From Escherichia phage Lilleen, in sequence record MK629526: a DNA stretch of 5,342 nucleotides. One strand, 5' to 3'. The notes beneath the pieces are model-generated. The model made no database searches. It was given only the letters and a program-made list of their open reading frames with translations, and was not told the DNA's origin. Below are positions 1 to 5,342 of this stretch, piece after piece; position 1 is the first letter of the stretch, and each line of letters starts with the position of its first letter. A program made the translations under genes and the position numbers.

Positions 1-1635
1 ATGTCTGTAGAACTCATCAAACCGCTCGTCGAAGCCGCTGGCATGTCGACACTTACTCAATCTCCAAACCTCCGTATCTGGAAACAGGTAAACACTCGCG
101 TAAAATTACTCGAAGAAATCCTTGCTCACTGGACAAACGGAATCCGTCGCTGCCCTGAAACCCAAGACTTCTACATGAACCCAAATTCTCAACTGGCTAC
201 TACTATTGCCTATCGTGCTCATCAAAAAGGACATAACCCAAAACTCATTCAATACCCTGACACATTTACTCTCGACGACATTATTCGCCGTAAACCAATC
301 CCTCAAACTGCCCCTGACGAACTACGCCTCTCTGATGAAATCGGTGAGGATTACCGCCTTACAGTCATCGCCATTGCTGACGAACTGCAAGAATGTTACG
401 ACGTGCTCGGACAACTTGATATTAATAACACTATAGACCACACCCCTAAAGGTAACGCCCACTGGAGTATGCTTTATGATAAACCTGTTAACACCCATTG
501 GTCACAGCTCGTATCTAAACGACCCCTTAAAGATATCCGCGCCGATTACAACTATGCAAAGGCGAAGGGTATTAAGGATGAATGCTCAAAAATGCTTGAG
601 GAATCCACCATGAAATCACGCCGTGGCTTTACCGTTCAACGATTGATGAATGCTATGCGCCAAGCCCACACTGACGGCTGGTATGTTGTATTCGACACTC
701 TTACTCTTGCCGATGACCGCATACAGGCTTTCTATGATAATCCCAATGCTCTTCGTGACTACTTCCGTGATATTGGTCGTATGGTGCTTGCTGCCGAGGG
801 TCGCTCTGCTAATGACTCACACGCCGACTGCTATCAGTATTTTTGTGTTCCAGAGTATGGCACACAGCACGGTCGTCTACATTTCCACGCAGTGCACCTT
901 ATGCGCACACTTCCTCTGGGTTCTCGTGACCCTAACTTCGGTAAGCTGGTACGCACTAATCGCCAAATAAACTCCTTGCAAAACACATGGCCCTATGGCT
1001 ATTCTATGCCCATCGCAGTCCGGTACTCCCAAGACGCATTCTCGCGCGCTGGCTGGCTCTGGCCTGTTGACTCAAAGGGTGAACCCCTTAAAGCTACCTC
1101 GTATATGGCTGTCGGCTTCTACGTCGCTAAATACGTTAATAAAAAATCTGATATTGATATGGCCGCAAAAGGCCTAGGGAATAAAGAATGGAACGCATCA
1201 CTCAAGACCAAAATATCTCTCCTACCAACAAAACTATTCAGAATCCGGATGTCCCGCAACTTCGGGATGAAGATGTTATCAATGGCGCACCTGACCGCCG
1301 AAACATTAATCCAACTGACCCAGCTGGGCTACGACTCGACCCCGTTCAACAACGTCTTGAAGCAGAACGCCAAGAAAGAGCTGAAATCGAGACTGGCAAA
1401 AGCATCTGTCGCGACCGTTTTGGCGGCGCAACCTGTAACGACCAATCTGCTAAAATTTATGCGCGATTTGACCCGAACAATCGGAGCGTCCAACCTGCAG
1501 AATTTTATCGCTTCAATGACTCAGAAATTAACACTCATGGATACTTCTGATGAGACCAAAAACTACCTTGCTGCTGCAGGAATTACTACTGCTTGCTTAC
1601 GAATTAAATCGAAGTGGACTGCTGGCGGAAAATGA
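1..1635 (+). CDS. A: Replication initiation protein A (rolling-circle HUH endonuclease)
   Basis: 544-aa ORF that I recognise as phiX174/G4 protein A: HUH-type motif 'GRLHFHAVH', twin catalytic tyrosines '[10 protein letters not shown]', conserved C-terminus '[14 protein letters not shown]'. If the window is circular, GGAGG at 5331-5335 sits 7 nt upstream of the ATG at 1 and an in-frame TAA at 5325-5327 closes the frame upstream. Stop TGA 1633-1635 overlaps the C start (ATGA). Confidence 0.9.
412..441 (+). other. Viral (+) strand origin of rolling-circle replication (A-protein nick site)
   Basis: Exact match to the conserved microvirus 30-nt origin CAACTTGATATTAATAACACTATAGACCAC as I recall it. 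The nick would fall between G418 and A419. It lies inside the gene A coding sequence, as in phiX174. Confidence 0.85.
610..1635 (+). CDS. A*: A* protein (in-frame internal initiation within gene A)
   Basis: In-frame ATG at 610 ('MKSRRGF...') preceded by GAGGA at 598-602 (7-nt spacing). Gives a 341-aa product, the same length as phiX174 A* as I recall it. Confidence 0.6.
977..1005 (+). promoter_or_regulatory. Candidate sigma70 promoter upstream of B (PB-like)
   Basis: TTGCAA (977-982), 17-nt spacer, TATTCT (1000-1005), inside gene A about 180 nt upstream of B. Weak match; position is analogous to phiX174 PB. Confidence 0.25.
1188..1550 (+). CDS. B: Internal scaffolding protein B
   Basis: 120-aa ORF nested in gene A in another frame. 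Conserved motifs 'PQLRDE', 'RFGGATC', and C-terminus 'QPAEFYRF...GYF' match phiX174 B (also 120 aa). AGGGA at 1175-1179 upstream of ATG 1188. Stop TGA 1548-1550 overlaps the K start. Confidence 0.9.
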
Positions 1636-2444: not shown

Positions 2445-2470
2445 GTGGGACCACGGTCCCACTCTATTTA
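2445..2470 (+). terminator. Stem-loop plus T-rich tail in the J-F intergenic region (TJ-like)
   Basis: GTGGGAC (2445-2451) pairs with GTCCCAC (2456-2462) across a 4-nt loop, followed by TCTATTTA. Position corresponds to the terminator after J in phiX174. Confidence 0.4.
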
Positions 2471-2480
2471 AGGATATAAA

Positions 2481-3806
2481 ATGTCTAATGTTCAAACTTC
2501 TGCCTCTCGTGATGCAATTGATTTATCACATCTGGTCTTCAACACTGGCGCTATTGGTCGCCTTAAAGTCGCATCATGGACCCCTGTTATCGCTGGTGAT
2601 TCTTTCCAGCTTGACGCTGTTGGTGCTTTACGCTTATCCCCTCTGCGTCGCGGCTTGGCTATTGACTCAACTGTTGATTACTTCACTTTCTATATTCCAC
2701 ACCGTCATATCTATGGCGATGCATGGATTCAATTTATGAAAACTGGCGTCGCTGCCACTTCTCTTAACCCTGTAACCACTGGCGAATACGTTGATAGCGC
2801 CTCTTATCTTGGTGTAATCCCTTCCAAAGATGGCAAGGTTCCTAAGTTCCTGCATCAAGGCTATCTCAATATTTATAATAACTACTTCAAAGCTCCTTGG
2901 ATGGCTGACCGTACTGAGGCAAACCCATCTAACTTAAACGACGACGACCGTCGTCATGGCTTCCGCTGCTGCCATCTAAAAAACATATGGTCTGCACCTC
3001 TTCCTCCTCAAACGGAAATCACTCGCGCTATGGATACTGGCGCTACTTCCATTGATATCATGGGTCTTCAAGCTGCCTACGCCCAACTTCACACTGACCA
3101 AGAACGTGACTACTTCATGCAACGTTACCGTGACGTAATCTCTTCGTTCGGTGGCAAAACTCACTATGACGCTGACAACCGTCCTCTTCTGCTTATGCGC
3201 TCTAACTTCTGGGCTTCTGGCTATGACATTGACGGTACTGATCAAACCTCATTAGGTCAATTCTCTGGTCGTGTCCAACAAACATTCCGCCACTCTGTTC
3301 CTCGCTTCTTCGTACCGGAACACGGCGTTATTATGACTCTTCAACTCGTACGCTTCCCGCCTACCTGCACTGAGGAAACTCACTACCTCGTCGGCAAAGG
3401 CGCACTAAGCTATACTGACCTTGCGGGCGACCCTACTCTTTACGGTAACTTACCGCCTCGCGAAATCGAAATGAAAACTCTCTTCCGTGGCGCTGCTGGC
3501 TCTTCTGAAAAAATCAAAATTGCCGAAGGGCAATGGTATCGCTATCATCCTTCTTACGTTGATGGTCAATATCACAACCTTCAAGGGTTCCCGTTCATCC
3601 CAAATGGTCCAACTGGCAACATGGAAAACCGTGTACTGATTGACCATAAAAAATATGACGAATGCTTCCAGTCACTTCAATTAACTCACTGGAATGCCCA
3701 GGCTAAATACAATGTCACTGTATATCGACACATCCCAACTACTCGTGATAGTTACTACTACTATCACAAAGGCCGTCACTCCCGCCGCGTTGGCTCCTAT
3801 TATTAA
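2481..3806 (+). CDS. F: Major capsid protein F (C-terminal 17 aa are out-of-frame read-through into G sequence)
   Basis: 441-aa ORF, AAGGA at 2470-2474 (6-nt spacing). Strong similarity to phiX174 F along the whole length up to '...[14 protein letters not shown]' (codon about 424). After that the reading is '[17 protein letters not shown]' instead of the expected short '...IMTS*'. Those last codons overlap nucleotides that encode G in the +1 frame. Confidence 0.9.
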   Translation: MSNVQTSASRDAIDLSHLVFNTGAIGRLKVASWTPVIAGDSFQLDAVGALRLSPLRRGLAIDSTVDYFTFYIPHRHIYGDAWIQFMKTGVAATSLNPVTTGEYVDSASYLGVIPSKDGKVPKFLHQGYLNIYNNYFKAPWMADRTEANPSNLNDDDRRHGFRCCHLKNIWSAPLPPQTEITRAMDTGATSIDIMGLQAAYAQLHTDQERDYFMQRYRDVISSFGGKTHYDADNRPLLLMRSNFWASGYDIDGTDQTSLGQFSGRVQQTFRHSVPRFFVPEHGVIMTLQLVRFPPTCTEETHYLVGKGALSYTDLAGDPTLYGNLPPREIEMKTLFRGAAGSSEKIKIAEGQWYRYHPSYVDGQYHNLQGFPFIPNGPTGNMENRVLIDHKKYDECFQSLQLTHWNAQAKYNVTVYRHIPTTRDSYYYYHKGRHSRRVGSYY

Positions 3807-4236
3807 TACGCCAACCGTTGCGCGTAACAATCTCTTTGTGAACTTAACTACTACCGCCCTAACTTCTCCGGGCGGTATCTCTGCTGTTGTCGCTATCGAC
3901 AACTCTTCTCATACCGACAATCAGGTTATCTCTATTGCTGCCTCTCTTTCTACTGCTGGCAGTCTAGTACCTGTTCTTTGTCGGTTTGAATCTGCTACTG
4001 TACCAACGGCTATCCCCGCATCTGCGGTTACTTACTATCCGTTGGAATTTAAATTATCTGCTACTGCTCTATCCGTCAAGGACTGCGCTACTGTCTCTAC
4101 TATTTCTCGCTCTGGCAATCCTGTTTATGTAGGTATTGCCCTTATTGCGAAATCATTTATCGCCGATACTGTATACGGCTCTATCTCAATTAATCAGGTT
4201 GACCAAGAAATCACAACTCTGCAACCCCTCAAATAA
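3694..4236 (+). CDS. G: Major spike protein G (canonical N-terminus, RBS and start absent; true start uncertain)
   Basis: G-like sequence runs from about 3766 ('[16 protein letters not shown]...[13 protein letters not shown]...VKDCATV...NPVYVGI...LQPLK*'), matching G4/phiX174 G from roughly residue 15-20 to the C-terminus. Upstream, the frame stays open inside F to ATG 3694 (and ATG 3712) with no convincing Shine-Dalgarno. The expected 'MFQ.FIS.HN' N-terminus is absent. Confidence 0.7.
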
Positions 4237-4246
4237 AGGAATCTCT

Positions 4247-5284: not shown

Positions 5285-5285
5285 C

Positions 5286-5315
5286 TTGACAATCACATCA
5301 TAAATCCTATCTAAT
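5286..5315 (+). promoter_or_regulatory. Candidate sigma70 promoter PA (gene A promoter)
   Basis: Perfect -35 TTGACA (5286-5291) just after the H stop, 18-nt spacer, -10 TCTAAT (5310-5315). Position corresponds to phiX174 PA in the H-A intergenic region. Confidence 0.4.
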
Positions 5316-5342
5316 AGCCTCCATTAACACGGAGGCTTTAAC
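5316..5342 (+). terminator. H-A intergenic hairpin (TH-like terminator; 3' arm contains the gene A Shine-Dalgarno)
   Basis: AGCCTCC (5316-5322) pairs with GGAGGCT (5331-5337) across an 8-nt loop, followed by TTTAAC and then, across the circular junction, the A start codon. phiX174 has the analogous 'GCCTCC...GGAGGCTTTTTTATG' arrangement. Confidence 0.45.

Follow-up and report, generated by a model that had tools for sequence, protein, structure and literature searches.

The genome record of Escherichia phage Lilleen (MK629526), a stretch of 5,342 nucleotides (nt) that was analysed whole and is called the window below, contains no complementary (-) strand origin. The origin that is absent is of the phiX174 type, nothing elsewhere in the sequence replaces it, and its absence is most likely an artefact of the database entry. 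Alignment to the nearest relatives revealed a single block of 155 nt missing between positions 3751 and 3752, corresponding to Lilleput 3746-3900, and with this block went the entire spacer between gene F, which encodes the coat protein, and gene G, which encodes the spike protein. In related phages this spacer carries a hairpin that can be traced to the site at which the primosome protein PriA binds in phiX174, and it is the identity of this element, the search for a substitute and the probable cause of the gap that are considered here.

The block missing from MK629526

The A, C, D and H proteins of the window, its F-frame product of 441 residues and its G-frame product of 180 residues are all identical to NCBI proteins of Lilleen. 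The window agrees in accession and length with the entry for Lilleen in the phage table of the original study (MK629526, 5342 nt; PMC7552041) and is a whole phiX/G4-like (Bullavirinae) genome, with position 1 at the ATG of gene A. The genes lie on one strand in the order A(A*,B,K)-C-D(E)-J-F-G-H, which is that of Lilleput-like Bullavirinae, and the closest records were those of the Escherichia phages Lilleput, Lilledu, lillemer, Lilleto, MG1 and SECphi17 (93-98% identity). These six GenBank genomes, together with contigs from ENA and Logan gathered through a look-up of the window's D protein, provided 13 other distinct genomes of the clade for comparison. All 13 contain the block, which is absent only in MK629526, and in every one of them F encodes 428 amino acids (aa), the F-G spacer is 99 nt long and G encodes 174 aa. 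The window departs from this set of features, having an F of 441 aa with a frameshifted tail, no spacer and a G without its native start.

Three segments make up the missing block, namely 16 nt from the 3' end of F (C ATC ATG ACT TCT TAA), all 99 nt of the spacer and 40 nt from the start of G, and the GACAGGGGGAAAAATTTTAATTTTTCGCCCCCTGTC hairpin lies within it. The resulting join fuses codon 424 of F to the middle of codon 14 of G (Table 1). The first-pass annotation of this DNA had claimed that no F-G intergenic region exists in the window and this was borne out, the F-frame open reading frame (ORF) at 2481-3806 overlapping a G-frame ORF that is open over 3694-4236. It had, however, treated the loss as the mere absence of a spacer, and in addition to the spacer the last four codons and stop of F are gone, as are the Shine-Dalgarno sequence, the ATG and the first 13 codons of G. 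The interval that it gave as the origin region, 3750-3806, marks a real absence, but is essentially the DNA of G codons 14-32 read out of frame and not spacer.

The two protein ends that were lost are the C-terminus of F, RD(S/G)IMTS, and the N-terminus of G, M(F/Y)Qx(F/Y)..(K/R)H(N/D), which in the clade begins MFQNF. Both are conserved in phiX174, SP14, G4, ID2, ID18, PJNS002 and alpha3 and are near-invariant across three genera, and the N-terminus of G is conserved although no protein of the subfamily varies more than the remainder of G. (Salmonella phage SP14 (PP501405), a phiX174-like microvirus of 5513 nt, carries a Caudoviricetes taxonomy line and is evidently mislabelled.) The ribosome site of G, AAGGA, was also lost with the block, and none of the three in-frame starts left to G (ATG 3694, ATG 3712 and GTG 3745) has a Shine-Dalgarno sequence before it. 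The proteins deposited in GenBank as QCG76763.1 ('major coat protein', 441 aa, 2481-3806) and QCG76764.1 ('major spike protein', 180 aa, 3694-4236) are chimeric products of the join, each holding wrong-frame residues from the DNA of the other gene. Searches of viral, metagenome and genome contigs with the junction sequence gave no match.

Identity of the missing spacer

A BLAST search with the Lilleput spacer matched its own clade, the ID2-like phages and nt 2301-2371 of phiX174 (~77% identity, E = 1e-5), and inside this last match lie nt 2308-2351, which are annotated as the complementary (-) strand origin in one phiX174 record. The absence of the (-) origin from the window is real, and more than chance, because the missing spacer is homologous to this annotated origin. 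An alignment of 12 spacers from phiX174-like, PJNS002, ID18, ID2 and Lilleput-like phages defined a hairpin with an invariant AAC...GGTT base and a nearly invariant apex, AAAAATTTTAATTTTT, followed by an invariant 3' flank, GGTTGA(A/C)CAAGCG(C)AAGCGCG, that forms a second small hairpin. The middle of the stem occurs in four differing versions in which pairing is kept, and standard pairs account for 97.8% of the structure cells. Changes on both sides of a pair were seen in 11 of the 27 pairs compared with 5.5 +/- 1.4 in shuffled alignments (none of 500 reached 11), and controls in which the structure was slid gave at most 3. Complete mutagenesis of phiX174 has identified the F-G hairpin as both the terminator T_F and the PriA binding site, with a second functional hairpin just downstream of it (bioRxiv 10.64898/2026.07.25.740675).

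Judged from this alignment, the missing spacer is the homologue of the PriA primosome site and T_F hairpin of phiX174 and not of the primase origin of G4, and by its homology to phiX174 the spacer of the clade would be expected to function through PriA. The first-pass annotation had named both a PriA site and a G4-type origin as lost; the absence stands, but the lost element has to be corrected to the phiX174 type. The Lilleput/ID2/ID18/PJNS002 group, although filed in or near Gequatrovirus (the Lilleput-like phages and PJNS002 on grounds of similarity), accordingly carries a phiX174-type PriA site instead of the G4 origin, and the covariation provides support for its structure. Over its first 83 nt the spacer does not differ between Lilleput and ID2, whose genomes are only ~80% identical, which suggests either very strong constraint on the spacer or its horizontal transfer, and because of this exceptional conservation the element appears to matter to the phages that carry it. 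A sliding fold scan also placed the lowest folding energy of the Lilleput genome at the spacer.

Search for a substitute origin

An origin elsewhere in the genome, which the first-pass annotation had itself raised as the observation that would speak against its reading, was sought with models of both known types and no credible one was found. The phiX-type model (R1), a covariance model of 12 sequences and 27 pairs run with filters off, gave no match at E <= 10 on either strand of the window, whereas Lilleput, ID2 and ID18 scored 95-102 bits. The G4-type model (R2) was built on four phages that have the origin between F and G (G4, WA3, ID12 and ID52) and two that have it between G and H (alpha3 and St-1). 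Its best score in the window was 11.4 bits at 2386-2491, compared with 162 bits for G4 and 132 for alpha3, and was produced by laying the J-F hairpin on hairpin I of G4; this hairpin is not followed by a CTG, the next letters being TCTATTT. Searches with blastn-short and nhmmer, in which the deleted block and the spacers of G4, alpha3 and phiX174 served as queries, returned only chance-level matches in the window. For the conserved 3' flank of the PriA site there was only a match of 11-14 nt (E = 0.1-0.6), and nhmmer found nothing below E = 1. The match in question, CAGGTTGACCAAGA at 4194-4207 near the 3' end of G, resembles the flank sequence GGTTGACCAAG at chance level and falls in the codons of a conserved NQVDQE motif. 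Relocation of the origin within the window was rejected on the results of R1 (nothing) and R2 (11.4 bits on the J-F hairpin).

The lengths that had been given for the other spacers were confirmed as 5 nt for D-J (2345-2349), 44 nt for J-F (2437-2480), 10 nt for G-H (4237-4246) and 58 nt for H-A (5285-5342), and folding agreed that each holds at most one simple hairpin, with one in J-F, one in H-A and D-J and G-H unfolded. The phiX174 counterpart of the H-A hairpin, T_H, has been described (bioRxiv 10.64898/2026.07.25.740675). The placing of the (-) origin in the F-G region, as claimed beforehand, holds for the spacer of the relatives but not for the subfamily as a whole, in which alpha3 and St-1 have a G4-type origin between G and H. 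It could be argued from this varying position that the (-) origin of the clade lies elsewhere, for instance in the H-A spacer or inside G, and that the gap then has no bearing on the conversion of single strands to the replicative form (SS-to-RF). A study of phiX174 evolution has cited the H-A spacer as another stretch of non-coding DNA that matters for the conversion of single-stranded (ss) to double-stranded (ds) DNA (PMC3606162), which would favour such an arrangement. It is nevertheless highly improbable, since the relatives' spacer is a clear, covariation-supported homologue of the annotated phiX174 origin and PriA site and no G4-type origin was found anywhere in Lilleput, ID2 or ID18 (R2 about 7-9 bits).

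In the sliding fold scan the strongest structures remaining in the window fell within G and at the beginning of H. A double hairpin in G is the most significantly structured stretch of both the window and the Lilleput genome, and has stems TACCGCCC/GGGCGGTA (10-nt loop) and GTTGTCG/CGACAAC (4-nt loop) with TCTCTGCTG and CTG triplets between them. In the clade the stems hardly vary, the substitutions lying in the loops and flanking DNA. Strong hairpins of unrelated sequence occur at a similar location in G in ID2 and G4. In geometry the double hairpin recalls hairpin I of G4, a hairpin and then a CTG, and it was the only candidate seen for a putative secondary priming signal.

Cause of the gap

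Lilleen, which forms plaques on MG1655, was obtained in a high-throughput screen, and its analysis was confined to in silico work; libraries were made with Nextera XT, a choice that the authors call 'peculiar' for ssDNA phages, and were assembled de novo with CLC or SPAdes (PMC7552041). At 26x, from 1,058 mapped reads, its coverage was the lowest of the six Microviridae in the study. The sister records show contig ends at arbitrary places and closure that went unchecked. That of lillemer (MN850599) is an unrotated contig in reverse orientation which is broken inside F, so that F is annotated in pieces, and has a terminal redundancy of 2 nt, and that of SECphi17 (LT960607) has a 55-nt terminal duplication of the kind typical of an untrimmed circular assembly. 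A 'GG' frameshift in F of lillemer was considered as a precedent for sequence error and rejected; it is the join of the record's ends and shows only that contig ends are arbitrary.

Beyond the identity of the record, the content of the block, the homology and structure of the spacer and the lack of a substitute, all of which were observed directly, we infer a cause: the gap is probably that of an incomplete record, in which the ends of a contig were joined on rotation to the start of gene A. A linear contig from a low-coverage short-read assembly may not have spanned the 155 nt around the F-G spacer, or may have been over-trimmed, and its two ends would have been brought together when gene A was made the start of the sequence, a rotation for which the contig ends had to be joined. 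Ends that failed to meet or were over-trimmed, and were then joined, would account for a clean loss without microhomology in a natural-looking genome. The real Lilleen would then resemble all of its relatives in having the 99-nt spacer and, within it, a primosome assembly site of the phiX174 type. PriA would bind the long hairpin of this spacer on viral single strands coated with SSB, after which PriB, DnaT and DnaC/DnaB would be loaded, DnaG would prime and Pol III would make the complementary strand, and the same hairpin in the transcript would serve as the terminator T_F.

The remainder of the genome has the appearance of a natural one. Private substitutions in the window number 36 and are for the most part synonymous, at least one further substitution (F D185) is common to metagenome contigs, and outside the insertions and deletions (indels) the backbone looks naturally diverged. 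The viral (+) strand origin is intact, so that of the two origins only the (-) origin is gone from the window. The first-pass annotation had predicted that a genome of this form would be impaired in SS-to-RF conversion. The origin on which the prediction rested is indeed missing from the sequence, but the impairment is probably a property of a faulty record and not of the phage, because a plaque former with such a genome is unlikely and the assembly is so shallow. Interpretation of the gap as biology is only partly supported, because it truncates two essential genes in the low-coverage record of a viable isolate.

Several points weigh against an incomplete record. Under uniform coverage the probability that 1,058 reads leave 155 nt uncovered is ~2e-22, which rules out a random coverage gap by arithmetic, and a local dropout of roughly 20-fold or an error of trimming or curation is therefore needed. 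Five sister phages were assembled through the F-G region by the same method, the sequence was deposited as a complete genome and the five phages are said to differ in non-coding regions (PMC7552041). An independent assembly of Lilleen was not found in the collections searched, in which C, the 441-aa F, the 180-aa G-frame protein and H had only NCBI sources. An arbitrary join also leaves unexplained the perfect hairpin that was created across the junction, since a perfect stem of at least 8 bp arose in only 0.15% of simulated 155-nt deletions; a junction-spanning fold as stable as that of the hairpin arose in 2.5%. The hairpin is probably a coincidence, for which neither direct repeats nor an enclosing stem offered a mechanism. 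As proof of a physical event it was set aside, its stability being only mildly unusual and having been looked at post hoc. In most relatives 7 of its 8 pairs are already present as an inverted repeat ~160 nt apart. The relation 155 = 2 x 77 + 1, where 77 is the largest default k of SPAdes, was set aside as numerology.

An alternative is that the deletion is physically real and was present in defective genomes propagated with a full-length helper in the enrichment lysate, the assembler having followed the deleted species. Isolation was by liquid enrichment and Nextera tagments only dsDNA, so that it was replicative forms that were sequenced (PMC7552041). A deleted genome would have 97.3% of the full length, and laboratory lines of phiX174 range from 5339 to 5368 nt among the records. 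Zuccarelli, Benbow and Sinsheimer reportedly described in 1972 deletion mutants of phiX174 that arise at high multiplicity, and the junction hairpin hints at a physical event over an arbitrary join. A genome without the primosome site should, however, replicate worse than its helper and so not dominate the pool, and for sample 33A the study reports no Lilleput-like contig besides this one. The endpoints also lack direct repeats, folding predicts no long-range stem around the block, and we consider this alternative unlikely. Two routes to a deletion fared no better when taken singly: slippage between direct repeats is ruled out by the lack of microhomology at the endpoints of the block, and for a polymerase jump over a stem enclosing the block no long-range pairs were predicted in Lilleput or MG1, where the left arm pairs locally.

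Still less probable is that Lilleen is viable and truly spacer-less, with G started from ATG 3694 or GTG 3745, a 17-residue F tail that is tolerated and (-) strand synthesis that begins elsewhere, either inefficiently or at a structure such as the double hairpin and CTG in G. Both ORFs are open and bear coat and spike annotations, neither the (+) origin nor any other gene is damaged, and the very stable double hairpin with its CTG triplets lies ~100 nt downstream (z = -7.7). Kim, Hines and Ray are said to have obtained in 1981 viable deletions of the complementary-strand origin of M13. Such a phage would, on the other hand, have had to lose near-invariant termini and the ribosome site of G, though 60 copies of G are needed per virion. 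The spacer that it did without is the exceptionally conserved one noted above between Lilleput and ID2, a similar loss was seen in none of the 13 relatives and neither origin model finds a substitute. In the literature searched no report was found on the viability of a phiX174 PriA-site deletion. It is correspondingly doubtful, to a high degree, that Lilleen forms plaques without a PriA site, an F terminator, a ribosome site for G and the termini that are conserved in F and G.

Other features of the sequence

Relative to every relative the window has three private indels, namely 6 nt inserted at D-J, 1 nt inserted at G-H and the 155 nt lost at F/G, and all three fall at gene junctions. From this position a synthetic or language-model sequence was suspected, and it was ruled out by exact Lilleen protein matches and by private substitutions that are mostly synonymous or shared with metagenome contigs. 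The D-J insertion is the palindrome AATATT at 2344-2349, between the stop of D and the start of J, and it breaks the TAATG stop/start overlap that is present in all 12 clade genomes compared there. It leaves the E frame intact, with an end of KESCKYYG in place of KESCNG, and it had no match in viral contigs. The G-H insertion is an A at 4235, through which TAAGGAATCTCTATG upstream of H has become TAAAGGAATCTCTATG. The coordinates of these and other features are collected in Table 1.

Table 1. Features of the Lilleen window, with the corresponding F-G spacers of related phages
Feature	Position	Strand	Remarks
Gene A	1-1635	+	B and K nested within
Viral (+) strand origin, 30 nt	412-441	+	Exact match in gene A, 0 expected by chance
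J-F spacer hairpin	2445-2462	+	Corresponds in position to terminator T_J; highest-scoring match to G4 hairpin I, but very weak
Retained F	2481-3751	+	Codons 1-424, ends ...TTRDS; in relatives 428 aa ending RDSIMTS
Chance upstream extension of the G frame within F	3694-3751	+	ATG 3694 gives the 180-aa GenBank 'major spike protein'
Perfect 8-bp hairpin, GTGATAGT-TACTACT-ACTATCAC	3745-3767	+	7-nt loop; created across the junction; -5.3 kcal/mol
Junction	3751..3752	.	Lost: end of F, spacer with PriA site/T_F hairpin and second hairpin, Shine-Dalgarno sequence, ATG and first 13 codons of G
Out-of-frame tail of the F ORF	3752-3806	+	17 codons then stop; DNA of G codons 14-32 in relatives
Retained G	3752-4236	+	From second base of codon 14 to stop; without native start or ribosome-binding site
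Double hairpin in G	3852-3903 (Lilleput 4000-4051)	+	-15.3 kcal/mol, z = -7.7
H-A spacer hairpin	5316-5337	+	Positional counterpart of terminator T_H; GGAGG in 3' arm, upstream of gene A
F-G spacers of relatives	Lilleput 3762-3860, ID2 3830-3928, ID18 3837-3928, PJNS002 207-303		phiX174-type PriA site

Implications

If the gap is an artefact, MK629526 is unfit as a complete reference, and a chimeric 441-aa 'coat' and a 180-aa 'spike' are already in the protein databases, from where they could reach training sets. Were the deletion real, no phiX-like phage before Lilleen would have been shown to survive the loss of its complementary-strand origin. A viable Lilleen of this form would mean that the canonical (-) origin is dispensable in a phiX-like phage, synthesis starting for example at the double hairpin and CTG at 3852-3903, and that the 'invariant' termini of coat and spike can be replaced.

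Comparison with known systems

The nearest known system is Lilleput (MK629525), of the Lilleput/SECphi17 clade of 'gequatroviruses', with 97.6-97.8% nucleotide identity across the whole window, and the two share gene order, the (+) origin and the J-F and H-A hairpins. Unlike this clade the window is without 155 nt at the F/G boundary and has its private 6-nt D-J and 1-nt G-H insertions. With the (-) origin and PriA (n') site of phiX174 (nt 2308-2351) the spacer of the relatives has in common the apex AAAAATTTTAATTTTT, the base, the 3' flank and a compensated stem, whereas the window, unlike phiX174, is without a copy of the PriA site on either strand. The oric of G4, which depends on DnaG primase and consists of three hairpins and a CTG start, likewise occupies the F-G spacer, and taxonomically the clade is placed in the genus of G4, but unlike G4 the clade does not, according to the model scores, use a G4-type origin. 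Should the deletion in Lilleen be real, the likeness would be to filamentous M13, which is reported to be an ssDNA phage able to survive without its (-) origin; the M13 deletions are said to be confined to non-coding DNA, whereas in the Lilleen window two essential genes are truncated as well.

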